Assembly (NCBI GenBank): GCA_018061205.1
Contig: JAGOUP010000001.1
Span: forward strand, 1 to 46,616
Direction: 5' to 3'
Source: Candidatus Levyibacteriota bacterium
Lineage (GTDB): Bacteria; Patescibacteriota; Microgenomatia; Levybacterales; UBA12049
DNA: 46,616 nt
Each line of letters starts with the position of its first letter. Position 1 is the stretch's first letter. The position numbers and the translations under genes are program-made. Below the pieces are notes generated by a model. That model searched no databases. It was given only the letters and a program-made list of their open reading frames with translations, and was not told where the DNA came from. Positions 12 through 46,584 of this stretch are shown here, piece by piece.

Positions 12-78
12 TGTCATCCTGAACTCGTTTCAGGATCTTTTTGTATGGACGAGATTCCGAAATAAATTCGGAATGACA
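12..78 (+). repeat. double-hairpin mini-element, copy 1 (tgtcatcctgaa..ttcaggatc / attccgaaataaattcggaatgaca)
   Basis: Hairpin 1 atcctgaa-N5-ttcaggat, hairpin 2 attccgaa-ataaa-ttcggaat, terminal inverted tgtcat/atgaca. Ends 5 nt before the first CDS. Confidence 0.8.
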
Positions 79-1324: not shown

Positions 1325-3678
1325 TGGATGTAACAGCACTGATTAGTATGCTTTTTGGGTCTTTTTTTGGCATTATTGCTCTCATTGGGCTTTTTTGGGG
1401 AGGAGGGTATATCTTTTTGTTGTGGTATCGAAATCGCCATAGGGAACATGATGCGCTCCATTCTGTCATGCTTCAAATCACTATTCCTCGTGAAAATGAA
1501 ATCAAAATTGATGCTGCAGAACAGCTCTTTGCATCATTTGCCTCACTCGCCAAACATAGTACCTTTCATTTTTTACACAATCAACCACATATGTCTTTTG
1601 AGATAGTTGGTATGCCAGGAGAAATTCATTTTTATGCCAATGTGCCGAAGAAATTACAAGACTTAGTGGAAAAACAAATCAATGGTGCGTATCCTGATGC
1701 GGATATCCAAGTAGTTACCCCTAAATCTGTACAGCACAAAGAATATGTATTAGGTGATGAGTACAATATCTTTTCAGAAACTGGCCATGTCGCCTTTGCC
1801 TCTATGAAACTTAGTGGGCCAGATTATGCACCGATCAAAATGTATAAAGATTTAGCGGTTGATCCATTGTCATCGATTACCTCGGTTCTAGCAAAAATGA
1901 CTGAAGGCGAAGGAGCAGCTATTCAGGTTATGGTATCCCCAGCAGGGGATCACTGGAAACATAAAGGAAAAGAATATTTATCCAAAACGAAAAAAACAGA
2001 AGCAAATCCTGAAACAGCACATTACAACTCTGATGCAAAAGAATTGGAAGCAATTGAAAGCAAACTTTCAAAGCCAGGATTCAATGTCGTTGTTCGTATT
2101 GTCGTTTCATCAAGCACTCATGAAGCAGCTGAAGCACATTTGAATAACATCGAAACGGCATTCTCCCAATTTTCAGGTATCAACTCATTTACGCATAACA
2201 AACATTTTTTCAAAAGTCTTTTTATGACTGATTTTATTTATCGCTATATGCCCATGAGAGGGCAGACATCAGTGCTTTCTAGCGAAGAATTAGCAACTAT
2301 TTTTCATCTTCCCAACAAAAGTATTACAACGCCAAATATTGTGTGGATGACGAGTAAAAGAGCACCTGCTCCTGCACAAATTCCGACGTCTGGCCTCTAT
2401 CTCGGTAAGAGTACCTATCGTGGTTTTTCAAAACCAGTATTTATGAATCTGACAGACAGAAGAAGACACATGTATATTATCGGCAAAACAGGTACAGGAA
2501 AATCCGAATTTTTGAAAGATATGATTATGCAGGATATTAATGAAGGAAAAGGTGTTGCAGTTATTGATCCTCATGGAGATTTGGTAGAAGATATTTTACC
2601 GATGATTCCAACACAGCGTGCAGAAGATGTGATTTTGTTTGATCCCTCAGATGTTGCCAGGCCTTTGGGTATCAATATGATTGAAGCCCAGACAGAGGAT
2701 CAAAAACATTTGATTACGACATCAGTTATCGGACTTATGTACAAGCTTTTTGATCCGAATAAAACAGGTATTATCGGTCCTCGTTTTGAACATGCTGTTA
2801 GAAATGCTATTTTGACAGTTATGGCAGAACCGGGGAGTACGTTTATCGAAGTCATGCGGGTTTTGACTGATCAGAATTTTGTACAGGAGATATTACCAAA
2901 AGTGCAAGATCCGATTATTAGACGTTATTGGACAGATCAAATTGCACAAACATCAGATTTCCACAAATCTGAAGTCCTTGATTACATCACATCCAAATTT
3001 GGTCGATTTGTGACCAATAAAATGATTCGAAATATTATTGGTCAGTCTGAAAGTGCCTTTTCATTCAGACAAGTTATGGATGAAGAAAAAATCTTGTTAG
3101 TAAATTTAGCTAAAGGAAAAATAGGAGAGGAAAATTCATCCTTTTTAGGTCTTATTTTGATTCCAAAATTGCTTGTTGCTGCGATGAGTCGACAGGACAT
3201 GCCCAAAGATCAACGAAAAGATTTCTTCCTTTATGTTGACGAGTTCCAAAATTTTGCTACTCCTGATTTTGCTCAGATTTTATCCGAAGCCCGAAAATAT
3301 AAATTGAATTTAGTTGTTGCCAATCAGTTTATCGGACAAATGGAAGAAGAAATCAAAAATGCTATTTTTGGAAACGTTGGTACGATCTGTTCATTCCGAG
3401 TGGGTGTGACTGATGCCAATTATCTCCAACACGAATTCCAACCAACATTCACTGAAGTTGATTTGATCAACATAGATAAATATAACAATTACATCAAAAC
3501 TATCGTGAATGAAGAACCTGTTCCTCCATTTTCACTTGATTTAACTCGTGATATGAGCAAAGAAGCAGAAAAAATAAATCCTCGAGTAGCAGAGCTGGTT
3601 CGTGAACTCTCACGTCTCAAATACGGTCGAGACGTCGCAGTAGTCGACGCCGAAATAACCCAACGCGCTCGGTTATAA
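1324..3678 (+). CDS. membrane-anchored P-loop ATPase of the VirD4/TraG/TraD (coupling protein, FtsK/HerA-like) type
   Basis: About 784 aa. Hydrophobic N-terminus (LFGSFFGIIALIGLFWGGGYIFLLW), Walker A GKTGTGKSEF, Walker B-like FFLYVDEFQNF. The ORF-track start at TTG 1321 was moved to ATG 1324. Confidence 0.7.
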   Translation: MDVTALISMLFGSFFGIIALIGLFWGGGYIFLLWYRNRHREHDALHSVMLQITIPRENEIKIDAAEQLFASFASLAKHSTFHFLHNQPHMSFEIVGMPGEIHFYANVPKKLQDLVEKQINGAYPDADIQVVTPKSVQHKEYVLGDEYNIFSETGHVAFASMKLSGPDYAPIKMYKDLAVDPLSSITSVLAKMTEGEGAAIQVMVSPAGDHWKHKGKEYLSKTKKTEANPETAHYNSDAKELEAIESKLSKPGFNVVVRIVVSSSTHEAAEAHLNNIETAFSQFSGINSFTHNKHFFKSLFMTDFIYRYMPMRGQTSVLSSEELATIFHLPNKSITTPNIVWMTSKRAPAPAQIPTSGLYLGKSTYRGFSKPVFMNLTDRRRHMYIIGKTGTGKSEFLKDMIMQDINEGKGVAVIDPHGDLVEDILPMIPTQRAEDVILFDPSDVARPLGINMIEAQTEDQKHLITTSVIGLMYKLFDPNKTGIIGPRFEHAVRNAILTVMAEPGSTFIEVMRVLTDQNFVQEILPKVQDPIIRRYWTDQIAQTSDFHKSEVLDYITSKFGRFVTNKMIRNIIGQSESAFSFRQVMDEEKILLVNLAKGKIGEENSSFLGLILIPKLLVAAMSRQDMPKDQRKDFFLYVDEFQNFATPDFAQILSEARKYKLNLVVANQFIGQMEEEIKNAIFGNVGTICSFRVGVTDANYLQHEFQPTFTEVDLINIDKYNNYIKTIVNEEPVPPFSLDLTRDMSKEAEKINPRVAELVRELSRLKYGRDVAVVDAEITQRARL

Positions 3679-3771: not shown

Positions 3772-3843
3772 GCGTCTGTAGCTCAGTGGTAGAGCGCTAC
3801 TCTTATAAAGTAGATGTCCTTGGTCCGAACCCAAGCAGACGCA
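3772..3843 (+). tRNA. tRNA-Ile, anticodon UAU
   Basis: Hand-folded cloverleaf: acceptor gcgtctg/cagacgc, D arm gctc-agtggta-gagc, anticodon arm ctact-cTTATAa-agtag (34-36 = TAT), T arm cttgg-tccgaac-ccaag, discriminator A. CCA is not encoded. Confidence 0.8.
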
Positions 3844-3845
3844 CT

Positions 3846-4838: not shown

Positions 4839-4865
4839 TTATATCACCCTTAAGTATTCTTGTTC

Positions 4866-5018
4866 GTGGTTCCCGCCATTAGGAGCACGCGTGAAGAAAA
4901 TGCAACGACTGAGCGTTAAGAAAATGGAACATTTTTAGTGAAGAAGGAAGTATTTTTAGCGCGCGCACGCTGGCGAATGCTTTTGGTACTTTTACGCTAA
5001 AAGTACAAGAAAGAAAAA
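4866..5018 (+). repeat. composite repeat family C, copy 1 (short form)
   Basis: gtggttcccgccattaggagcacgcgt ... gcgcacgctggcgaatg..ttttggtacttttacgctaaaagtacaagaaagaaaa. Shares both ends with the copies at 9558 and 21449. Confidence 0.8.
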
Positions 5019-6296: not shown

Positions 6297-6395
6297 TGTC
6301 ATCCTGAACTTGCTCCGCCTCGAAGTGGCCAGTCCCCTTGGGGGATTTCAGGATCTTTTTTACATTTAGATTCTTCGGTAAACCTCAGAATGACA
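6297..6395 (+). repeat. double-hairpin mini-element, copy 2, with a GC-rich expansion in hairpin 1
   Basis: tgtcatcctgaa...[ctccgcctcgaagtggccagtccccttggggg]...ttcaggatc ... cagaatgaca. Sits between the convergent guaB and add stops, so it may also act as a terminator. Confidence 0.7.
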
Positions 6396-7484: not shown

Positions 7485-9023
7485 ATGGAGAGTATGATTG
7501 TTGTCGTTGATTTTGGAGGACAAACAGCACATCTGATCTCACGCCGCCTCAAAGAACTCGGAGTTTCTTCACGAATGGTTATCCCCGAAGAAGCGTTAGC
7601 TGAAATCACGAAAACAAAACCAAAAGGCATTATTCTTTCAGGTGGCCCTTCATCAGTATATGGTGATAATGCACCAACAATAGATACAAAAATTTTCTCT
7701 GTAGATATTCCTGTGTTAGGTATCTGCTATGGTGTACAACTGTTTGCCCATTTATTAGGTGGGGAAGTGGTATCTGGAAAAAAGGAGTATGGACCAGCGG
7801 ACATTGAGATAACAACACCGAATACCAAGCTTACCAAAGGGTTACCTAAAACGTTTACTGTCTGGATGAGTCATGGTGATGAGGTTATTAGTATTCCAAA
7901 AGGGTATAGTACTGTTGGTTCAACGCCGCATGTGCCACATGCCTTTGTCGAAAATGATGAAAAAAAAATATATGGTGTGCAGTTTCATCCTGAGGTAGAG
8001 CATACACAGCATGGCATGGTGATTTTGCAAAACTTCATAGAGATTTGTGGTATTACGGCAAAACATGAAGTTGTGGATCTAGAAGCGATGAAAGCTCAAA
8101 TCAAAGAAACTGTTGGTGATGCATATGTTATTGGTGCAGTTTCTGGTGGTGTTGATTCAACTGTTGCTGGTATTTTAACTGCACAAGCAATTGGTGATCA
8201 CTTCTTGCCGATTTATGTAGACAATGGGTTGATGAGGGAGGGAACAGAGGAGTCTGTGAAAAGACTTTTCACAGAACAAGGGCATATTAGGCCTATAGTC
8301 CTTAGAACAGAGCAGGAGACTGTGGATAACTTGGCTGGTATAACTGATCCTGAGGCTAAAAGAAAGTGGATTGGATCAAACTATATCAAGCTATTTGAGC
8401 AAGAAATGGACAAACTGATCTCGAAAGGTTTAGATGTCAAATTCTTACTGCAAGGGACTATTTATTCAGATGTTATTGAATCGCAAGGCTCAAAACATTC
8501 CTCAAAGATAAAATCACACCACAATGTCGGGGGTCTCCCCGAGCACATGAAGCTTACCTTACTTGAACCTTTGAGGCAATACTATAAAGATGAGGTTCGA
8601 ATTATCGGTGAGACGCTTGGACTGCCAAAGGAGTTCGTCTGGAAGCAGCCTTTTCCAGGGCCAGGGTATGCTGTTCGTATTCGTGGTGAGGTTACTATGG
8701 ATCGTCTGAAAAAAATACGAATGGCCGATCAGATAGTATTACAGGAGCTCGAAAAAGCAAATCTGCTGAATGACGTATTCCAGTCATTTGCGATTATGAC
8801 CGGTGCATTCTCAACTGCTGTCAAAGGAGATGAGAAATTTTTTGGAGAAGTTATCGCTATTCGTGTTGTTAATTCCAAAGATATCATGACTGCAACATGG
8901 GCACCTCTCCCCTACAATGTCTTACAAAATATGAGTAGTCGCATTGTTAACGAAGTGCCTCAAATCTCGCGCGTGGTATATGACATAACCACCAAGCCTC
9001 CTGCCACCATGGAATGGGAATGA
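7485..9023 (+). CDS. guaA: GMP synthase (glutamine-hydrolysing)
   Basis: 512 aa. GATase domain (GICYGVQ, FHPEV), ATP-PPase P-loop SGGVDSTV, C-terminal dimerisation domain ending PPATMEWE. Confidence 0.95.
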   Translation: MESMIVVVDFGGQTAHLISRRLKELGVSSRMVIPEEALAEITKTKPKGIILSGGPSSVYGDNAPTIDTKIFSVDIPVLGICYGVQLFAHLLGGEVVSGKKEYGPADIEITTPNTKLTKGLPKTFTVWMSHGDEVISIPKGYSTVGSTPHVPHAFVENDEKKIYGVQFHPEVEHTQHGMVILQNFIEICGITAKHEVVDLEAMKAQIKETVGDAYVIGAVSGGVDSTVAGILTAQAIGDHFLPIYVDNGLMREGTEESVKRLFTEQGHIRPIVLRTEQETVDNLAGITDPEAKRKWIGSNYIKLFEQEMDKLISKGLDVKFLLQGTIYSDVIESQGSKHSSKIKSHHNVGGLPEHMKLTLLEPLRQYYKDEVRIIGETLGLPKEFVWKQPFPGPGYAVRIRGEVTMDRLKKIRMADQIVLQELEKANLLNDVFQSFAIMTGAFSTAVKGDEKFFGEVIAIRVVNSKDIMTATWAPLPYNVLQNMSSRIVNEVPQISRVVYDITTKPPATMEWE

Positions 9024-9535: not shown

Positions 9536-9557
9536 TCTGTCAACATTGATCTTTTTG

Positions 9558-9745
9558 GTGGTTCCCGCCATTAGGAGCACGCGTTAAGAAAATGTGACGA
9601 GTGAACGTCCCGTAGGGAAAAAGAGATAGGCGGAGCGAAACGCAGTGAGCGCAGTCCGTCTTTTTAGTGAACGAGGAAGCATTTTTAGCGAGCGCACGCT
9701 GGCGGAGGCTTTTGGACACTTTTGCAGTAAAAGTGTCAGAAAATA
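9558..9745 (+). repeat. composite repeat family C, copy 2
   Basis: Same termini plus a central gataggcggagcgaaacgcagtgagcgcagtccgtc module. Same orientation as the other copies. Confidence 0.8.
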
Positions 9746-11471: not shown

Positions 11472-11535
11472 GTCATCCTGAATTTATCCTTCGATATACT
11501 CAGGATCCTGAGCTTGCCGAATGGATTTCAGCATC
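11472..11535 (+). repeat. degenerate or composite copy of the hairpin elements
   Basis: gtcatcctgaa...tcaggatcctgagcttgccgaatggatttcagcatc. The tcctgagcttgccgaa hairpin appears nested inside a tgtcatcctgaa..ttcagcat element. Confidence 0.6.
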
Positions 11536-11538
11536 TCG

Positions 11539-11583
11539 TTATTTGTCTTATCAGTCTTAGTTGTCCTATTGGTTTTATACTCT
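11539..11583 (+). repeat. 9-bp tandem array x5 (consensus TTATNNGTC)
   Basis: ttatttgtc ttatcagtc ttagttgtc ctattggtt ttatactct. Same consensus and orientation as 3685-3729. Confidence 0.75.
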
Positions 11584-19745: not shown

Positions 19746-19812
19746 TGTCATCCTGAACTTGTTTCAGGATCTAGTTTTATATATGAGATGCTGAAATAAA
19801 TTCAGCATGACA
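19746..19812 (+). repeat. double-hairpin mini-element, copy 3 (overlaps the purC 3' end)
   Basis: tgtcatcctgaacttgtttcaggatct-N13-agatgctgaaataaattcagcatgaca. Both arms are identical to the purK-internal copy. Confidence 0.9.
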
Positions 19813-21379: not shown

Positions 21380-21448
21380 GCGTATACAAATTTATACCAC
21401 ATTTCTTTTTAAATAGAAAGATATCGTTTTGCTCGGTGTAATTTATTT

Positions 21449-21654
21449 GTGGTTCCCGCCATTAGGAGCACGCGTTTATCCTGAGCTTGCCGAAGGATTA
21501 AAGAAATGTGTCGAGTGAGCGTGAAAAAAAGAGATAGGCGGAGCGAATGCATATGAGCGCAGTCCGTCTTTTTAGCGAACGAGAACACATTTCTAGCGAG
21601 CGCACGCTGGCGAATGTTTTTGGTACTTTTACGCTAAAAGTACAAGAAAGAAAA
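21449..21654 (+). repeat. composite repeat family C, copy 3 (with nested hairpin)
   Basis: Fills the purK-purE spacer and abuts the purK stop codon. Confidence 0.8.
21477..21498. repeat. tcctgagcttgccgaagga hairpin nested in composite repeat copy 3
   Basis: Present only in copy 3 of the 150-200 bp repeat. Flanked by TTA on both sides. Confidence 0.8.
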
Positions 21655-21656
21655 TT

Positions 21657-22859
21657 TTAGATACTAATTAGTCTTCTAGCTTTTTTTACTCTTTTCAAAC
21701 ATATTTCAAGTGATGGACCAATACTTGTTATATGTCCCATTTTTCTCTCCATTTTCGTTTCTGCTTTTCCATACATATGGATGCTGACTCCTGGGATTTT
21801 GAGAGCTTCTTCTAGTCCTTTTATTTTTGCTGTTCCATTTCGTTCTCCTAAAATATTTATCATCACAGCAGCAGGGGTTTTCATGAGAGTTCTCCCTAAC
21901 GGTAAACCTGTTACTGCCCGAATATGTTGTTCAAACTGTGATGTGATAGATGACTCTATCGTTACATGGCCACTATTATGAACTCTGGGTGCAATTTCAT
22001 TCACCAAAATTTGAGCTTGCCCTGAGCTTGTTGAATGAGTCAGGAACATCTCTATTCCAAAAACACCTGCACCTTTGAGGTGCTGCATTACTTTTTTTGC
22101 CAAGCTTTCGGCTTTTTTGCTGAGTGGTTTACTGATAGGTGCTGGAGCGAGTACTGTTTGTAAAATATTATTTTTGTGAATCGTTTCAACAACAGGAAAT
22201 GTTTTGATTTTACCAGTGAGACTTCTGACTGCAATAATCGCCAATTCTTTTTCAAAGGGGATAAATTTTTCAACATACAACTCATTACCTTTCAGTTTTT
22301 CTAACCCTTTTGTAATATCATTTTGAGTTTTAACAACAAAATTTCCCCTCCCATCATAAGCACCAGTTTTTGCTTTAAGGAGGAAAGGATAATTGATTCT
22401 CTTTGCTATTTTTTTGATGTCATCCTGAACTTGTTTCAGGATCTCTACATTGCTTTTTTTAGATGCTGAAATAAATTCAGCATGACAAGAAGGTATGTCC
22501 ACAAATTCAGCAACAGGAATTCCTGCTTTTTTCAGAAAGACTTTTTGTTCATATTTATCTTTTATCATTCGGAGTGTTTGCGGAGAAGGGTTCACTGTAA
22601 TCCCTTTTTGTTTTATTTCTTCCAAAAGCTCCGGGTTGGCCAATTCCCAGTCGAAAGTCATAAAGTCTGAAAGATGTGCCAATTCCCACATTGCTTTTTC
22701 ATCATTTAAATCAGCAACAATCTGTTTATCCGCGAGTTGTCCAGCAGGTGATTTTGGTGTCGGATCCAAAATTGTAACGGTAAAACCTAGGTGTTTGGCA
22801 GAAGGGATCAGCATACGGGCGAGCTGTCCACCACCAACAATACCTATTCTATTTTTCAT
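21657..22859 (-). CDS. purK: N5-CAIR synthetase
   Basis: ATP-grasp fold. IGIVGGGQLARML, AKTGAYDGRGNF, NEIAPRVHNSGH. Start moved to ATG 22859 (MKNRIGIVGGGQ). Contains a 70-bp repeat element read in frame. Confidence 0.9.
   Translation of the reverse strand: MKNRIGIVGGGQLARMLIPSAKHLGFTVTILDPTPKSPAGQLADKQIVADLNDEKAMWELAHLSDFMTFDWELANPELLEEIKQKGITVNPSPQTLRMIKDKYEQKVFLKKAGIPVAEFVDIPSCHAEFISASKKSNVEILKQVQDDIKKIAKRINYPFLLKAKTGAYDGRGNFVVKTQNDITKGLEKLKGNELYVEKFIPFEKELAIIAVRSLTGKIKTFPVVETIHKNNILQTVLAPAPISKPLSKKAESLAKKVMQHLKGAGVFGIEMFLTHSTSSGQAQILVNEIAPRVHNSGHVTIESSITSQFEQHIRAVTGLPLGRTLMKTPAAVMINILGERNGTAKIKGLEEALKIPGVSIHMYGKAETKMERKMGHITSIGPSLEICLKRVKKARRLISI
22011..22042. repeat. degenerate gagcttg-type hairpin remnant inside purK
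   Basis: ttgagcttgccctgagcttgttgaatgag. Translated as HSTSSGQAQ, the same STSSG frame as in purD. Confidence 0.45.
22418..22487 (+). repeat. double-hairpin mini-element, copy 4 (entirely inside purK)
   Basis: tgtcatcctgaacttgtttcaggatct-N16-agatgctgaaataaattcagcatgaca. Read through in frame. Confidence 0.9.
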
Positions 22860-24258: not shown

Positions 24259-24848
24259 AAAACGTTTACGCCGAATTTTTTTAGCGATGGGATGATTTTA
24301 CTCAATGGTAATCCCACTACATTATAGAAATCTCCATCAATATGTTCAAGGAGTACTGCCCCAATTCCTTGGACACCATACCCTCCTGCTTTGTCCATTG
24401 GTTTTTCTATTTTGAGATATGTTTTTATTTCTGCATCACCCAGTTTTCGAAAGGTAACTTTTGTTTCCACAGAATCGGTATGTGTTTTTTTGAGTTTATT
24501 ATCCAAAAGGGTAAAACCAGTGATAACACTATGTGTTTTTCCTTGCAGTTTTTTTATCATACGTCGAGCATCATCCATATTTCTTGGTTTACCCAAAATC
24601 TCTCCCTTACTATCTATAATCGTATCAGCTGCGATGATAATAGCATCTGGATATTTTATTGCCACCGTTTGCGCTTTTTCTAAAGAAAGCTCTTCTGCTT
24701 GGCCTTTTGGTTTGAGTCGAGGATTGAGTTTTTCCTCGATATTACTTGGGACAGTCGTAAAAGATAATCCTATTTGTTCCAAAAGTTTTTTCCGTCTCGG
24801 TGATTGCGATGCTAAAATAATCTGCCTCATATCTTTCTCCCTTGTCAT
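24255..24848 (-). CDS. maf: Maf-like nucleoside triphosphate pyrophosphatase
   Basis: 197 aa. ILASQSPRRKKLL, IIAADT, KAGGYGIQ-like (KAGGYGVQG) motifs. The first ATG lies in a repeat hairpin, so ATG 24830 (MRQIILASQSPRR) is an equally good start. Confidence 0.85.
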   Translation of the reverse strand: MTREKDMRQIILASQSPRRKKLLEQIGLSFTTVPSNIEEKLNPRLKPKGQAEELSLEKAQTVAIKYPDAIIIAADTIIDSKGEILGKPRNMDDARRMIKKLQGKTHSVITGFTLLDNKLKKTHTDSVETKVTFRKLGDAEIKTYLKIEKPMDKAGGYGVQGIGAVLLEHIDGDFYNVVGLPLSKIIPSLKKFGVNVL

Positions 24849-24869
24849 CCTGAACTTGTTTCAGGATCT
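24843..24869. repeat. solo hairpin 1 (tgtcatcctgaacttgtttcaggatct)
   Basis: Exact 27-nt match to hairpin 1 of the composite element. Overlaps the first ATG of maf. Confidence 0.85.
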
Positions 24870-27234: not shown

Positions 27235-27262
27235 TGTCATCCTGAACTTGTTTCAGGATCTC
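27235..27262. repeat. solo hairpin 1 (tgtcatcctgaacttgtttcaggatctc)
   Basis: Exact match. Lies in the purA/dnaG divergent intergenic region. Confidence 0.85.
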
Positions 27263-32684: not shown

Positions 32685-32712
32685 TACAATGTACAATGAA
32701 GAATGTATAATG
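32685..32712 (+). repeat. 7-bp tandem repeat (tacaatg-like) x4 across the start of the four-helix-bundle gene
   Basis: tacaatg tacaatg aagaatg tataatg. Confidence 0.8.
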
Positions 32713-33077
32713 AGGGGACGGAAAATAGGACTTTTGATATTCGACAACGAAGCTTTCAATTTGGAGTAAAGATCGTTCTTTTTATTAGAACCTTTCCAAA
32801 AGATACGGCAGGGTTTGCTATTGGAAATCAATTGATACGTTCTGGAACTTCAGTGGGAGCAAATATTGAAGAAGGACAAAATGCTAGTAGTCGAAAGGAT
32901 TTTATTCATTGTTTGACTATTTCCTTAAAAGAAGCAAGAGAAACTGAATATTGGTTGAAGATAATTCAAGAAACGAAATTAATTATACATGAAGATTTGG
33001 TAGGACTTTTACAAGAGATTAACGAATTAATTAAAATATTGACAACAATTATTAAAAAATCCAAGGAAAAATTGTAA
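32703..33077 (+). CDS. four-helix-bundle protein (23S rRNA intervening-sequence protein family)
   Basis: 124 aa. Family blocks QLIRSGTSVGANIEEG, KDFIHCLTISLKEARETEYWL. Flanked by GTACA-type repeats. Confidence 0.8.
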   Translation: MYNEGTENRTFDIRQRSFQFGVKIVLFIRTFPKDTAGFAIGNQLIRSGTSVGANIEEGQNASSRKDFIHCLTISLKEARETEYWLKIIQETKLIIHEDLVGLLQEINELIKILTTIIKKSKEKL

Positions 33078-34302: not shown

Positions 34303-35064
34303 CTATAATCTACTATTATTAAAATAATGGCTCCAATCTCCATCATGAAATTCATTTAAGACCATACAAATATCTATACCAAAATCGTTTTGTATGTATA
34401 CCCACACACACTTTATTTCCGGTACATCTATGCCTTCTGGAAATAATTTCTTAAAATCCTCATATTTCGCTTCTACTTGTAAATCTATTTGTATAAGAGG
34501 TGTAGATGATTTTGAAAAAGAAACTATTTCAATTTTTGGTCTTCTGATTAAATCATAATTTACTTCTCCGCTCTCGATTTCTTCTTTTGTCCCAGGAAGT
34601 ATAAAATCCCAAGGTTCATCAGCAAGTTCCTTAGGAAAGGTATGATAGAGACAAGTCTCTTTTAGCTTTTCTCTCAGTTCAAGTATTTGAGGATGAATGC
34701 CGCCAAAATATGGGAGATTAAAACCAGTATGATCGACAGCTTTTAATAATAGATCTTTAGCTCTATTAAGATACTCGTCCATAGCTATATGTTTATATTC
34801 ATGTGGACTTTGTTTCGTAATGCCAGTTACATTTGTTATATCTACAGAAAATGAAGAGTTATCACTAAAATTAAAATGTACTTGCGGAATCTGTCTCTCT
34901 GAAAAAGAAAATTTTGTTGAAGGGCTATATGTGTTTTCTGAAAGATTTAGTCTTAATTCTTCATTTTCTACATTTCCTAGATGAGACAAGTAATCAAGAA
35001 AGGATTTAGTAAATTCTTTGTTTTTGTTTGGGAGTTTGTAGAGTACATCTATTAAATATTTCAT
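34303..35064 (-). CDS. hypothetical protein, paralogue of 45820..46584 (possibly VOC/glyoxalase-like fold)
   Basis: 253 aa, highly similar in protein and nucleotide sequence to the ORF at the window end. VDHTGFNLP and IQIDLQVE are weakly reminiscent of VOC metal-binding strands. Start overlaps the upstream kinase gene by 4 nt. Confidence 0.6.
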   Translation of the reverse strand: MKYLIDVLYKLPNKNKEFTKSFLDYLSHLGNVENEELRLNLSENTYSPSTKFSFSERQIPQVHFNFSDNSSFSVDITNVTGITKQSPHEYKHIAMDEYLNRAKDLLLKAVDHTGFNLPYFGGIHPQILELREKLKETCLYHTFPKELADEPWDFILPGTKEEIESGEVNYDLIRRPKIEIVSFSKSSTPLIQIDLQVEAKYEDFKKLFPEGIDVPEIKCVWVYIQNDFGIDICMVLNEFHDGDWSHYFNNSRL

Positions 35065-36047: not shown

Positions 36048-36059
36048 TCTATTTTTGAG

Positions 36060-36074
36060 TGCTATAATCAGCTT
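36060..36074 (+). promoter_or_regulatory. extended -10 tgctataat, 6 nt before ATG 36075
   Basis: tgctataat-cagctt-ATG. The same box is duplicated at 39668 and 44193. Confidence 0.55.
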
Positions 36075-36548
36075 ATGAAGGAATCTAAATTTGATTGGAG
36101 AAAATACATAGAAGAAGCATTATCAGCTACAGAGTATTGCAGCTTAGCTACAGTGGATGAAAAAGGAGTGTGGTCAAATCCTGTCTATTTTGCTTGGGAT
36201 GAAAAATATAATCTGTATTTCATTTCCCAAATGCATTCTCGTCATATGCAGAATATAAAAAGGAATAATCGGATAGCAGTATCTATCTATAAAACAGAAC
36301 AAAAAGGTGATGTACTTGGTATACAATTGGAAGGTAGAGCAGAAATTTTAACAGGAAAAAAAGAAGCAATGAAAAAAGCGTTCGATATTTATTTTGCCAG
36401 AGCGGGGAAAGGTAAAGACCAAGAAGAATATATGACTAACCCTACTTGGCATTTTGTTAAAATTACTCCTGAACATATCTACTATTTCGACACCAATTTT
36501 TTTGAGGAAGAAAGGCAAGAAGTACCATTGCAAGAGCTAATAAACTGA
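36075..36548 (+). CDS. pyridoxamine 5'-phosphate oxidase-like FMN-binding protein (general stress protein 26 type)
   Basis: 157 aa from ATG 36075. The ORF-track extension back to 35952 overlaps the divergent kinase gene and its promoter. Split-barrel-like pattern CSLATVDEKG...NPVYFAWDE...LYFIS. Confidence 0.65.
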   Translation: MKESKFDWRKYIEEALSATEYCSLATVDEKGVWSNPVYFAWDEKYNLYFISQMHSRHMQNIKRNNRIAVSIYKTEQKGDVLGIQLEGRAEILTGKKEAMKKAFDIYFARAGKGKDQEEYMTNPTWHFVKITPEHIYYFDTNFFEEERQEVPLQELIN

Positions 36549-38497: not shown

Positions 38498-39667
38498 ATG
38501 GATAGAAATATACAAATTGCATATATATTAACCATTTTTAAAAATACGTGGTTTTGGCTGGGTATATGGATTTTTTATTATCTCCGATTTACTGATTACG
38601 CTGGTATTGGGCTTATTGAAACATCATTAGTTATTGCTATGGCGATTAGTGAAATCCCAACAGGAGCAGTAGCTGATTTATTAGGTAAAAAGAAAACCTT
38701 ATTTGTTTCCTTTCTTTTGCAAGCAATCGGTGGATATATGATGGCATTTGCTCCTCATGTATCGTGGCTTATTGTTGCAGTTTTTATCATGGGAATAGGT
38801 GGAGCATTTTATTCAGGAACTTTAGAAGCCTTGGTATATGATTCGTTAAAACAAAAAGGGCAAGAGGCTACATATAACAAAGTTATTTCTCATATTACTT
38901 CTTTAGGACTTGCTGTTCCTGCAATATGTAGTATCCTTGGAGGTTTTCTTTATATCATGCAACCTAATCTACCCTTCTTAGCAAATGCCCTTGCTTATTC
39001 TCTTGCACTTATTTTCTGTTTATTCCTTATTGAACCAAAGATTGATACTGAGAAGTTTTCAATGAAAAATCTTTTGGTTCAAACACAATATGGTTTCCAT
39101 CAACTATTTAAAGAAAACTACATACGAAAACAAATGATTATTTTATTAGCTATCGGATTAGTTGTTGTTATTTGTGATGAGATGCTCAATAGTTTCTTAG
39201 GAGTAGAGTTTGGATTCAAGCCTGAATCTATTGGCATATTGTGGGCTGTTATTTATCTCGTTTCTGCGTTTGCTTCACAATTAACTCCATACATCACAAA
39301 ATTCATGCCATATGATAAGTCAATTATTCTTATTGGTGTACTTATAGCCGTATCGCTTATTGTATCTCCATGGCTTGGATTGGTTATTGGAGGTTTTTCT
39401 CTTTTACTGCGATCATCCTTACAAGCAGTCTATGGAAATGTATCATCCATTATTATTAACGACCATACAGAATCTCGGTATAGAGCAACAACATTATCTA
39501 CATTTAACCTCATCAAAAATATTCCTTATGTATTAACGGCATATCTTCTAGGATCTATGGCTGATACATATTCTGCTGTCGTTTTAGCAAGTATTTTAGG
39601 TGTTGTACTTATGATTATGCTTCTTTATCCATTGTTTGGAATTTTAGTAAATAGGCCTAAAATCTAG
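38498..39667 (+). CDS. MFS transporter
   Basis: 389 aa, about 11-12 hydrophobic segments. GAVADLLGKKKT loop resembles MFS motif A. Confidence 0.75.
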   Translation: MDRNIQIAYILTIFKNTWFWLGIWIFYYLRFTDYAGIGLIETSLVIAMAISEIPTGAVADLLGKKKTLFVSFLLQAIGGYMMAFAPHVSWLIVAVFIMGIGGAFYSGTLEALVYDSLKQKGQEATYNKVISHITSLGLAVPAICSILGGFLYIMQPNLPFLANALAYSLALIFCLFLIEPKIDTEKFSMKNLLVQTQYGFHQLFKENYIRKQMIILLAIGLVVVICDEMLNSFLGVEFGFKPESIGILWAVIYLVSAFASQLTPYITKFMPYDKSIILIGVLIAVSLIVSPWLGLVIGGFSLLLRSSLQAVYGNVSSIIINDHTESRYRATTLSTFNLIKNIPYVLTAYLLGSMADTYSAVVLASILGVVLMIMLLYPLFGILVNRPKI

Positions 39668-39688
39668 TGCTATAATCAGTTTATAAAT
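39668..39688 (+). promoter_or_regulatory. extended -10 tgctataat, 12 nt before ATG 39689
   Basis: Duplicated together with the PNPOx-like gene (gtgctataatcag shared with 36059). Confidence 0.5.
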
Positions 39689-40108
39689 ATGTCAGATTTT
39701 GAATGGAAGAGATATATAGAAGAAGCGTTATCAGTTACTGACTATTGCAGCATTGCAACAGTAGATGAGAAAGGTGTCAAATATAATCTATACTTCATTT
39801 CCCAAATGCACTCTCGTCATATGCAGAATCTGAAAAAAAATAACAGGATTGCAGTATCTATTTATAAAACAGAACAGAAAGGTGATGTCTTAGGAATACA
39901 ACTAGAAGGAACAGCAGAAATTTTGACAGGGAACAAAGATGAAATGGAAAAAGCCTTTGCTATTTATTTTGCAAGAGCTGGAAAAGGGAAAGATCAAGAA
40001 ACATACATGAATAATCCTACATGGCATTTTGTCAAAATCACCCCACAGAAAATGTACTACTTTGATACTAGATTTTTTGAAGAAGAAAGACAGGAAGTAT
40101 CATTATAA
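39689..40108 (+). CDS. PNPOx-like FMN-binding protein, paralogue of 36075..36548 with an 11-codon in-frame deletion
   Basis: 139 aa. Near-identical blocks (YFISQMHSRHMQN, AVSIYKTEQKGDVLGIQLEG, YFARAGKGKDQE), but WSNPVYFAWDE is missing. Confidence 0.6.
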   Translation: MSDFEWKRYIEEALSVTDYCSIATVDEKGVKYNLYFISQMHSRHMQNLKKNNRIAVSIYKTEQKGDVLGIQLEGTAEILTGNKDEMEKAFAIYFARAGKGKDQETYMNNPTWHFVKITPQKMYYFDTRFFEEERQEVSL

Positions 40109-40113
40109 ATGTT

Positions 40114-45400: not shown

Positions 45401-45823
45401 ATGAACATTCAAGTACTAGAACAAAAATCAGAAGAGATGAAAGCTTTTGATAAGCATGAATGGAAAGCATATGATCAAGAACACTTTGGGCATGTAATAG
45501 TCTGGGATACCAAAACGTATTTCCTTAAAGCAGAAGATGAAACAGGAATACTCGGTACGCTTGAGGTTAAAGTAGAGGGAGGAGTTGGTAAAATAAATAC
45601 TCTTCTCGTTGGAAAAGGTAATCAACGAAAAGGGGTGGGAAAAGCACTTATGGAAAAGGCGGAAGAAATAACTAAGCAGCAAAATGGACATAAACTTTTT
45701 TTGATGACAGGAAAAGGATGGGAAGCAATAAAGTTTTATGAAACAATGGGATTTGAAAAGACTGCTGAAGTAAACAATCACTACTTTAATACCGATTTTA
45801 TAGAGTTAACAAAGTTTATTTAA
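45401..45823 (+). CDS. GNAT-family N-acetyltransferase
   Basis: Acetyl-CoA motif QRKGVGKALMEKAEE. Start set to ATG 45401, 6 nt after a tataat box inside the end of the ANT gene. Confidence 0.7.
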   Translation: MNIQVLEQKSEEMKAFDKHEWKAYDQEHFGHVIVWDTKTYFLKAEDETGILGTLEVKVEGGVGKINTLLVGKGNQRKGVGKALMEKAEEITKQQNGHKLFLMTGKGWEAIKFYETMGFEKTAEVNNHYFNTDFIELTKFI

Positions 45824-46584
45824 AATAATCTGCTATTCTTGAAATAGTGACTCCAATCTTCTTCTTGAAACTCATTTAATACCATACAAATATCTATGCC
45901 AAAATCGTTTTGAATGTATATCCATACACACTTTATTTCAGATACATCTATCGCTTCAGGGAATAATTGCTTAAAGTCCTTATATTTTGCTTCTACTTGT
46001 AAATCTATTTGTATAAGAGGAGTAGAAGACTTAGGGAAAGAAACAATTTCGATTTTTGGTCTACGAGTAAGATTATAATCAACCATATTACTTTCAATCT
46101 CCTCTTTTGTACTAGGAAGAATAAAATCCCACGGCTCATCTGCTAATTTTTTGGGGAAAGTATGATAGAGACAAGTATCCTTTAATTTTTCTCGCAGTTC
46201 CAGAATTTTGGGATGAATGCCTTCGAAATAGGGAAGATTAAAACCAGTATGGTCTATCATTTCTAATGACAAATCTTTAGCTCTTTTGAGATAATCATCT
46301 AAACTAATATGCTGATATGCATGAGGACTTTTCTTTTCAGTACCAGTGGTATTTATAATATCTACAGAAAATGAAGAGCCATCACTAAATTTAAAATGCA
46401 CTTGTGGAATCTGTATGTCTGAAAAAGAAAATCTTGTTGAGGGGATATATATACTTTCTGAAAGATGTAGTTTTACTTCTTCATTTTCTATAGTTCCTAG
46501 ATGAGAAAAGTAGTCCAAAAAAGATTTAGTAAATTCTTCATTTTTGTTTGGCAGTATATATTGCACTTCTACTAAATATTTCAT
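45820..46584 (-). CDS. hypothetical protein, paralogue of 34303..35064
   Basis: 254 aa, collinear with the 253-aa ORF. Here it stands alone with its own tgttatact box upstream. Confidence 0.6.
   Translation of the reverse strand: MKYLVEVQYILPNKNEEFTKSFLDYFSHLGTIENEEVKLHLSESIYIPSTRFSFSDIQIPQVHFKFSDGSSFSVDIINTTGTEKKSPHAYQHISLDDYLKRAKDLSLEMIDHTGFNLPYFEGIHPKILELREKLKDTCLYHTFPKKLADEPWDFILPSTKEEIESNMVDYNLTRRPKIEIVSFPKSSTPLIQIDLQVEAKYKDFKQLFPEAIDVSEIKCVWIYIQNDFGIDICMVLNEFQEEDWSHYFKNSRLF

Follow-up and report, generated by a model that had tools for sequence, protein, structure and literature searches.

In-frame palindromic repeats in essential genes are a textbook oddity, known mainly from Rickettsia. 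The RPE-1 element of this genus is reportedly a palindromic repeat lying in frame in genes for essential proteins, where it is said to be tolerated as a surface segment. The CGTC-tagged REPs, in turn, are defined by a CGTC tag (TGTC or CCTC being accepted), an 8-9 bp stem starting with A, T, a 4-5 nt loop and an unpaired 3-bp tail with the consensus CCA; they are multi-copy, mainly arranged as tags-outward (HH) dimers and mostly intergenic, and some intragenic dimers encode 20-30 aa (PMC3733652; Di Nocera, De Gregorio & Rocco 2013, BMC Genomics 14:522). Their families occur in 5 phyla, most of all in Alphaproteobacteria, and the superfamily also takes in Neisseria dRS3 and, as CGTC-4 and CGTC-1, RPE-4 and RPE-6 of R. 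conorii; repeated occupation of one orthologous site over many genomes is described for Xanthomonas recB alone (PMC3733652). Hairpins with a CGTCAT tag are bound and cut as ssDNA by the Ssn GIY-YIG nucleases, for which an NTS-ssnA-NTS layout has been reported and mobilisation of the repeats has been proposed as a hypothesis only (PMC11893778; Chenal et al. 2025, Nat Commun 16:2388). Searched by term, its text brings up neither in-frame or intragenic copies nor Patescibacteria.

Here, we analysed a stretch of 46,616 nt (the window) from a Candidatus Levyibacteriota contig, in which the original prediction had placed a 70-bp double-hairpin element, in frame, inside the purK ORF. The quoted sequence was found at 22418-22487, wholly within the ORF, as an inverted pair of 27-nt units with a 16-nt spacer between them, each unit consisting of a TGTC tag, an 8-bp stem beginning AT and a 5-nt loop. 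The host gene and the parts of the element are as follows.

21657..22859, minus strand: purK (N5-CAIR synthetase), 400 aa, the host gene; the insert is aa 125-147.
22418..22444, plus strand: unit A of the purK copy (TGTC tag, ATCCTGAA stem, CTTGT loop, TTCAGGAT, CT).
22445..22460, no strand: AT-rich spacer CTACATTGCTTTTTTT, 16 nt, with no stop in the purK frame.
22461..22487, minus strand: unit B of the purK copy, inverted, tag outward (TGTCATGCTGAATTTATTTCAGCATCT on the minus strand).

In our view, this segment is very probably a tags-outward ("head-to-head") heterodimer of TGTC-tagged REP units, belonging to the CGTC-tagged REP / Ssn-related-motif superfamily and lodged in the PurK linker. 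Selfish repeats of this sort are already known; here one occurs in a host new to them, at a site where insertions recur. The insert reads through as CHAEFISASKKSNVEILKQVQDD, with the border peptides ...DIPSCHAEFISASK and SNVEILK, and only one of the six frames through it is open, the one in use. The in-frame placement was therefore correctly predicted; the length was not, as the frame-preserving insert measures 69 nt (23 codons) and its last base(s) overlap a native-like GATGACA at the right border.

The same arms had been predicted to recur at three other places in the window. All three copies are real, and three more were found (the two singles and the degenerate nested unit below).

12..78, plus strand: tags-outward dimer, unit B stem ATTCCGAA; intergenic, 5 nt ahead of the ATG of the cobalamin adenosyltransferase gene.
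6297..6395, plus strand: dimer with guaB and the adenosine deaminase gene converging on it; the loop of unit A has a 33-nt insertion.
11472..11540, plus strand: degenerate unit with a second hairpin nested in its loop; intergenic.
19746..19812, plus strand: dimer between purF/N and purC; the purC ORF crosses unit B and has its stop in the spacer (...NCHAEFISASHI, then stop).
24843..24869, plus strand: single unit A; intergenic, upstream of maf.
27235..27261, plus strand: single unit A, with purA and dnaG diverging on either side.

The window thus holds at least seven copies (four tags-outward dimers, two singles and one degenerate), of which the purK copy is the one fully intragenic (23 aa), one other overlaps a gene 3' end and the rest are intergenic. 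The contig itself begins within a repeat copy. If the intergenic copies have any action, it is probably that of a hairpin in DNA or RNA, by analogy with the REP literature.

Unit A of purK is identical over 27/27 nt to 19746-19772, 24843-24869 and 27235-27261, and unit B, again over 27/27 nt, to 19786-19812. The three stem variants of the window (ATCCTGAA, ATGCTGAA and ATTCCGAA) are all 8 bp long with 0 mismatches, their loops (CTTGT, CTCGT and TTTAT) are each 5 nt, and compensated pair changes are the sole differences among the stems; between units A and B of purK the change is a compensatory C-G to G-C. Spacer sequence varies from copy to copy, which would argue against simple copy-and-paste of the whole dimer. 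The enrichment of the repeat in the window is not due to chance: with up to 2 mismatches, the 12-mer GTCATCCTGAAC occurs 12 times against 3.7 expected, a number reached in 0/100 shuffles, and TTTCAGGATCT occurs 11 times against 1.8 expected. Folded as ssDNA, the purK element reaches −14.4 kcal/mol (z = −5.4), and none of 200 shuffles gave an equally good fold. A contig scan found the exact 27-mer in unrelated contexts across at least 12 phyla.

The features of the window copies agree with those of the CGTC-tagged REPs in most respects. All full units begin with TGTC, stems and loops fall within the published ranges, and copy number, HH dimerisation and placement are as described for that superfamily; the shared traits also include heterodimers, a location mostly near gene ends and no transposase alongside. 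The window copies differ from the described families in their host (CPR/Patescibacteria), their AT-rich stems, their short (13-16 nt) and variable spacers and their tail, which is short (C-T, then variable) and off the CCA consensus; in relatives that flank ssn genes, the final bases are CC or CT. The original prediction had likened the element to the Rickettsia palindromic elements, and this likeness is more than an analogy because RPE-4 and RPE-6 are assigned to the same superfamily (PMC3733652). RPE-1 shares with the purK copy the in-frame position of a palindromic repeat within an essential-protein gene and is set apart by its description: about 100-150 bp, a Rickettsia-specific sequence and no tagged 27-nt hairpin pair.

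Other classes fit less well. As in the REPIN-RAYT system (Bertels & Rainey 2011), two REP units stand in inverted orientation and can fold together into one long hairpin, and the element is non-autonomous, with a presumed need for a single-copy enzyme that works on hairpins of ssDNA. However, its tag is TGTC rather than GTAG, the enzyme would be a GIY-YIG nuclease rather than an IS200-like Y1 transposase, and REPINs are essentially extragenic; REPIN/RAYT membership was rejected on the tag and on the absence of any transposase family among the 46 Pfam-scanned window ORFs. A classical MITE was also rejected, since no direct duplication flanks any copy and the ends are self-folding hairpins, not simple terminal inverted repeats. 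At the gathering threshold, Rfam returned two tRNAs and nothing else for the whole window, and at permissive E-values only chance miRNA-like hairpins for the element. A third repeat family (4858-5012, 9550-9715 and 21441-21648), considered as a riboswitch, had no Rfam match, and its third copy is antisense to its neighbours.

The original prediction had noted no transposase in the window. Indeed, neither a transposase nor a GIY-YIG gene was found among the 46 Pfam-scanned ORFs (of 47 non-overlapping ORFs of at least 100 aa); the families detected are metabolic or housekeeping only, and 8 ORFs had no significant match even at E up to 1. The ORFs of 119 cross-phylum loci were clustered in search of a gene travelling with the 27-mer. 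The largest cluster, with 12 loci, consists of type IV pilin-like genes from Gastranaerophilales; it reflects the lineage and is no enzyme. ABC ATPases and HTH regulators are also incidental, and a small 4-locus GIY-YIG cluster is the sole relevant one. A 23S-rRNA-IVP four-helix-bundle cassette was also considered as hairpin cargo and rejected, as tagged units flank none in L002 or in the window.

The GIY-YIG genes in question are single-domain, of about 95 aa (PF01541 matches the L108 homologue with E = 5e-16), and the units flanking them in other genomes are identical or near-identical to the window type. Outward-tagged units bracket GIY-YIG ORFs in L044, L037, L129 and L127; units on both sides of a cd10448-type gene were found in L044, L037, L144, L145, L149 and L166 and in the CPR genomes L129 and L127. 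Some Ssn homologue genes are flanked by TGTCATCCTGAA or TGTCATGCTGAA units, and the 27-mer of window unit B adjoins, with 27/27 identity, the GIY-YIG gene of L145 and L166. Among 70 metagenome loci with a GIY-YIG gene, at least one unit lies within 150 nt of it in 60, and on both sides in 37. Close to the gene there are 6.7 units per kb, against 0.15 per kb at a distance, a 45-fold local enrichment, and 112 units point outward against 24 inward. The cassette and the purK dimer have the same tags-outward geometry, with a gene in place of the 16-nt spacer.

By analogy with these cassettes, the likely partner enzyme of the window repeats would be a small GIY-YIG "Ssn" nuclease, not a classical transposase. 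The window units resemble the NTS/SRM-Ssn system in their (C/T)GTCAT head followed by a hairpin and ATC, and in the IS-like layout in which units bracket genes of about 95 aa. They differ from it in that the window has no ssn gene and its units miss the published SRM pattern: HGTCWYN(0-2)YYVSBRHN(0-5)WNVSBRGN(0-2)RNCYNB gave 0 matches on both window strands, because it needs G/C at stem positions that are A/T here. As identical or near-identical units flank nuclease genes elsewhere with their tags outward, the purK insert looks like a gene-less cassette, and it may be a non-autonomous derivative of an Ssn cassette. A putative nuclease of the Ssn type, with its gene elsewhere in the genome, would recognise the units as ssDNA hairpins. 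Selection would then have filtered the insertions, or the replacements of an older unit in situ, leaving only a copy that preserved the frame and lay in a tolerant loop.

That the element is dispersed and is not PurK sequence, as first proposed, is borne out both by its identity to the intergenic copies and by its absence from solved PurK structures and from most relatives. A linker of 15 residues is found in 89 of the 120 closest PurK homologues, against 35 residues in the window PurK. A further 29 have an expanded linker with different inserts at the same site, from 6 to about 49 extra residues, and are patchily distributed over the phylogeny. An indel of 23-24 aa had been anticipated. T. 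maritima PurK (3ax6) does lack 23 residues at the insert site; B. anthracis PurK lacks 20, and the net gain over the nearest empty sites is likewise 20 aa. With a net gain of 20 rather than 23 aa and a native-like GATGACA at the border, the exact insertion event cannot be reconstructed.

In all six expanded linkers checked at the DNA level, tagged hairpins of different subfamilies were found, and the relative L211 carries a canonical NTS-type unit (TGTCATTCCCGCGAAGGCGGGAATCCAG) at the same PurK site. A 5' half-unit "stutter" was also seen upstream of full units. The empty site of L125 reads GAT GAC ATA, resembling the ATGACA tag of the repeat, so that the site might be targeted; at the second empty site, that of L124, the sequence is AAT GAT ATT, with one mismatch. 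This tag-mimic target is a lead and not a result, with the single empty site of L125 behind it. The wider reading, in which the PurK ATP-grasp linker is a recurrent landing site for Ssn-associated hairpins across Microgenomates, maybe targeted beyond being tolerated, and its residents are kept identical to the active family, is offered tentatively and is in our judgement unlikely.

It is possible, if doubtful, that the linker was colonised long ago and that its resident unit has been turned over in situ, overwritten by gene conversion or joined by a new unit. P0002, P0006 and P0007 share an orthologous unit (DPIASLQDD, DSIASLQND and DPIASLQGD) in the same columns as EILKQVQDD of the window, with the same final codons CAG GAT GAC as the window segment; its third-codon positions are 89-100% identical against 52-63% gene-wide, over 9 codons only. 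The 100% identity of the window copy to other contig copies and the variation of spacers among dimers are also consistent with turnover. However, in a quick neighbour-joining (NJ) tree without support values the window PurK lies beside the insert-free P0015, whose site is empty at the DNA level, and P0022, and occupied and insert-free sequences are interleaved, so that several clean losses would be needed.

Returning to the heterodimer of REP units, we considered its effect on the host protein. The window PurK is identical to a deposited "Candidatus Levybacteria" PurK, a protein known from a single contig. The insert occupies the linker between the first strand and the first helix, at the start of the ATP-grasp domain. 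AlphaFold gave a mean pLDDT of 94.1 and a pTM of 0.92, with dips to 72-77 in blocks 121-140 only, and by Foldseek the model matches 3ax6 with a TM-score of 0.93; on these predictions, the PurK fold is kept despite the insert. Structure prediction had been suggested as a check for a surface loop, and this was found for part of the insert only: a low-confidence loop (about aa 122-136) is followed by an N-terminal extension of the helix at 137-155. PurK would presumably stay active with the 23 extra residues translated.

Inactivation of PurK, as an in-frame pseudogene or in a pathway that no longer needs it, is improbable. The insert does lie where the mobile lid region of the ATP-grasp domain begins, the Pfam match to that domain starts only at residue 141 (profile position 16), and the identity of both units to other copies would indicate a recent event that selection may lag behind. 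Against this, the reading frame has no stops or frameshifts, every invariant column of the alignment, of which the window PurK is the first sequence, is retained, the fold is predicted with confidence, and the extra residues are tolerated there by the 29 related PurKs, some inserts being common to diverged genomes. The surrounding pur operon also appears intact: Pfam scans cover purC, purF/N, purD, purQ, purM, maf and purK, while purA, purB, purE, purL, DnaG and sigma-70 were assigned by position or synteny with L002, the neighbouring ORF being called purE here by annotation.

A repeat-induced mis-join in this metagenome-assembled contig is more improbable still. The protein comes from one contig only, this contig starts in a repeat copy and short repeats can confuse assemblers; but the sequence on either side of the element is contiguous purK read in one frame, a mis-join would not produce an extra 69 nt that keep the frame and include a unique spacer, and analogous inserts occur at the same codon in independent assemblies of other samples. 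A native, lineage-specific linker merely resembling the intergenic repeats would agree with the variable length of the PurK linker, but is effectively refuted by the 27/27 identity of both units to intergenic copies, whereas the purK genes of relatives reach only 69-80% identity, and by the unrelated contexts of the 27-mer across phyla. Finally, removal of the hairpin after transcription or translation, in the manner of an intron, intervening sequence or intein, to give a mature PurK without the insert, has a negligible probability: the transcript could form a long hairpin, but Rfam matches to the element are chance hairpins, 69 nt show no ribozyme or intein features, and hairpin cleavage cuts an mRNA without re-joining it.

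The heterodimer of TGTC-tagged units in purK means that the element class known from Rickettsia performs the same in-frame colonisation in a CPR bacterium with a tiny genome. Such repeats lengthen proteins, give rise to spurious peptides such as VIPAKAGIQ and CHPELVSGS and can interrupt the match to a Pfam domain, and this AT-rich subfamily escapes the published SRM search pattern. Many related PurKs carry different hairpin repeats at one codon position, and insertion, homogenisation and protein tolerance could be compared between these naturally occupied sites and the empty ones. Moreover, a candidate enzyme, from the recently discovered family of single-strand-specific GIY-YIG nucleases, is suggested for a repeat superfamily that had no known partner until 2025. 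If this is true, the classic in-frame RPE phenomenon would be tied to these nucleases, and the PurK locus, together with the half-unit stutter, would be the first concrete handle on the integration and turnover of CGTC/SRM repeats.

The element predicted at 22418-22487 was found exactly as described, that is, TGTCATCCTGAACTTGTTTCAGGATCT, a 16-nt spacer, and AGATGCTGAAATAAATTCAGCATGACA, and it lies inside purK, a minus-strand ORF (21657-22859) with a 400-aa product. The product is a 100% match to a deposited 5-(carboxyamino)imidazole ribonucleotide synthase ("MAG: Candidatus Levybacteria bacterium"), contains all three PurK Pfam domains, and matches solved PurK structures with E = 4e-99. On the coding strand, the element reads as CHAEFISASKKSNVEILKQVQDD (aa 125-147), and only one of its six frames is open, namely the one used by purK. 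The surrounding gene block (purA-maf-purB-purK-purE-purC-purF/N-purD-purL-purQ-purM) is intact: purC, purF/N, purD, purQ, purM, and maf were covered by Pfam scans, the remainder by ORF position and synteny.

The element had also been described as dispersed, with copies at 12-78, 6297-6395, and 19746-19812. All three were recovered with unit matches, and the units of the purK copy recur 27/27 at other contig positions:

22418-22444 (+): left unit (unit A) of the purK copy
22461-22487 (-): right unit (unit B) of the purK copy
19746, 24843, and 27235: left unit without mismatch (27-nt comparison)
12: left unit with one loop change
6297: left unit with 33 extra nt in the loop
19786-19812: right unit, 27/27
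52-78: right unit, 23/27
11472-11540: degenerate copy with a second hairpin nested in the loop

Shuffled sequence never attained the observed repeat counts. Outside purK, the copies are intergenic except for 19746-19812, where purC enters the right unit and ends in the spacer. The dimer's right unit and spacer thus supply the final 11 purC codons plus the stop codon (tail ...NCHAEFISASHI, 19777-19812), in the frame used in PurK. The unit loops take in further insertions (33 nt at 6297-6356, the nested hairpin at 11472-11540). Unit A lies on the + strand in 7/7 window copies, while gene orientation and GC skew vary along the contig, which may reflect a strand-biased insertion process or a single replichore.

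All units are built from an unpaired TGTC, an 8-bp stem starting with AT, a loop of 5 nt, and a short tail. Left and right units are reverse complements of each other whose stem differences are compensated (stem pairs ATCCTGAA/TTCAGGAT, ATGCTGAA/TTCAGCAT, and ATTCCGAA/TTCGGAAT), and the dimer can fold as two hairpins or as a single long one (as DNA, -14.4 kcal/mol, z = -5.4). Spacers between window units are 12-16 nt long, AT-rich, and unconserved from copy to copy. The CGTC-tagged REPs of Di Nocera et al. (PMC3733652) have an unpaired CGTC, often TGTC, 8-9-bp stems starting with A-T, loops of 4-5 nt, a short tail, and no associated transposase; tags-outward "HH" dimers, often heterodimers, predominate, and the repeats are chiefly intergenic, with some intragenic dimers coding for 20-30 aa. 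The same work equates Rickettsia conorii RPE-6 and RPE-4 and Neisseria dRS3 with CGTC-tagged REP families. The window unit follows all these rules but the tail consensus; the likeness to Rickettsia palindromic elements (RPE), originally drawn as a resemblance in behavior, is therefore a family-level match, within a REP superfamily that includes RPE-4 and RPE-6.

The original prediction expected an indel of 23-24 aa exactly at the element borders. An extra segment compared to most PurKs is indeed present: 23 of its residues are absent in T. maritima PurK and 20 in B. anthracis PurK, and the linker has 35 residues in the window PurK versus 15 in 89/120 best homologues (55-69% identity, largely CPR). 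That the segment is simply native linker is not favored. P0015, the homologue neighboring the window PurK in the NJ tree, has an empty site (TTT GTT GAA GTT ACG ACA CGA GAT GAC ATA), where the window reads TTT GTG GAC ATA CCT TCT [TGT CAT ... GTT CAG] GAT GAC ATC; the net gain is thus 20 aa, and the right border is ambiguous because GATGACA is already present in the native sequence.

The AlphaFold2 model of the window PurK, based on the 120-sequence alignment, reached a mean pLDDT of 94.1 and a pTM of 0.92, with pLDDT dipping only at residue blocks 121-140 (72-77) and 271-280 (81). In the model, residues 122-136 are mostly loop, and 137-147 lengthen helix 137-155. Compared with T. maritima PurK, it scores a target-normalized TM of 0.93 on superposition; in silico, the linker tolerates the in-frame extra segment and the PurK fold is preserved. 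All invariant alignment columns are kept, and an in-frame pseudogene is not favored, nor is removal of the segment after transcription; the insert-bearing PurK is predicted to be active, with the extra residues translated.

A second variable PurK site lies at 22011-22040 (minus strand, aa 274-283), where THSTSSGQAQ represents +5 residues and pLDDT dips to 81. A near-same peptide occurs in 9/120 homologues far apart on the tree, in a longer form in homologue P0004; the DNA of the peptide, CATTCAACAAGCTCAGGGCAAGC, is similar to CCTTCGACAAGCTCAGGGC within the insert of homologue P0002.

Expanded linkers at the insert's position were found in 29/120 homologues, many with tell-tale peptides (VIPAKAGIQ, VISSDSERSRDFS, VILKGAKATDRI) and with C-terminal ...ND, ...DD, or ...MT, two open readings of ATGAC. 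In a quick NJ tree, they are dispersed among insert-free sisters. Tagged hairpins were present in 6/6 expanded linkers checked as DNA (loci L001, L002, L004, L126, L210, and L211), including a near-canonical NTS unit, TGTCATTCCCGCGAAGGCGGGAATCCAG, with an inverted partner in L211; an assembly artefact in the window is not favored. A unit orthologous in three diverged genomes has a third-codon identity of 89-100% versus 52-63% gene-wide, which points to nucleotide-level constraint or homogenization. The window copy itself may have inserted recently, or it may be an older resident that was overwritten.

Two of these loci carry a "23S rRNA intervening sequence protein" cassette between purA and maf (L002 7660-8007; L126 7645-7992); the window has a HAD hydrolase gene and a single repeat unit there instead, and its homologous gene (small, four-helix bundle) adjoins tRNA-Asn at 32703-33077. 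A tRNA-Ile gene with anticodon TAT, uncommon in bacteria for AUA, lies at 3772-3844. Repeats of another family, each about 170-200 nt long (4858-5012, 9550-9715, and 21441-21648, all + strand), share a long conserved core, with 61-88% identity to reference copies in gapless register and no match in Rfam; the copy at 21441-21648, between purE and purK, has an untagged hairpin, TTATCCTGAGCTTGCCGAAGGAT, nested within it. Diverged duplicated blocks (77-85% identity; 34303-35064 versus 45820-46584, 36058-36535 versus 39666-40110) encode one pair of paralogous 253-aa proteins without Pfam match and one PNPOx-like pair.

The 27-mer, searched exactly with one loop base free, matched at least 119 stretches. 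Its hosts include at least CPR lineages (among them another Levybacteria genome), Bacteroidota, Rhodothermota, Ignavibacteria, Elusimicrobiota, Alpha-, Gamma-, and Deltaproteobacteria, Spirochaetes, Firmicutes, Melainabacteria, Dependentiae, and Nitrospirae. Among the matches listed, 47/139 units are paired with an inverted tagged unit no more than 130 nt away (spacers 3-102 nt, mostly 12-45), and about 20 of the 122 testable units are in a frame without stops over 50 or more codons in both directions, an upper bound for intragenic copies. In Gastranaerophilales (Melainabacteria), the 27-mer lies just 5' of type IV pilin-like genes at 12 or more independent loci (including L007, L010, L042, L059, L069, L080, L107, and L122). 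Stacked immediately ahead of full units are 5' half-units (tag and left arm, e.g., TGTCATCCTGAAC) with 6-9 nt after them (L037 at about 7907-7989; L045, L066, L101, L106; L210 in purK, where the stutter is translated in frame); within 60 nt of the 139 units listed, 27 are upstream and 5 downstream.

Chenal et al. 2025 (PMC11893778) described CGTCAT-tagged hairpins (NTS; more broadly, SRM) bound and cut as ssDNA by Ssn, small single-domain GIY-YIG nucleases whose genes are typically repeat-bracketed in an IS-like layout; mobilization of the repeats by Ssn is a hypothesis in that work. Among the loci fetched by the 27-mer, a cluster of ORFs of ~95 aa proved to be GIY-YIG (PF01541, E = 4.8e-16), and units of the window type bracket such genes, tags outward, as in locus L044:

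1523-1549 (+): unit
1557-1859: GIY-YIG gene
1872-1898 (-): unit

The same layout occurs in L037 and, within CPR, in L129 (Patescibacteria) and L127/L128 (Kuenenbacteria). Such proteins are encoded at 70 metagenome loci examined; 60 of these show a unit with outward tag no farther than 150 nt away, and at 37 there is one on either side. Units number 6.7 per kb beside the gene versus 0.15 per kb more than 300 nt away, and 112 tags point outward versus 24 inward. The window right unit, 27/27, adjoins a GIY-YIG gene in L145 and L166. The published SRM pattern did not match the window units, and no GIY-YIG gene was found in the window. Since the purK dimer has the cassette geometry with a 16-nt spacer in the gene's place, we read it as a gene-less derivative. 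An Ssn-type nuclease encoded in the host genome could act on it in trans, the units would be recognized as ssDNA hairpins, and purifying selection would filter reading frame and site.

Searches of the literature turned up neither repeats of this kind in CPR proteins nor a hot spot in PurK, and when the Ssn paper (PMC11893778) was searched by term, neither Patescibacteria nor intragenic copies came up. Two extensions are worth following: the recurrence of the insertion at an orthologous site, and the connection of Ssn nucleases with RPE-like repeats that sit in frame.
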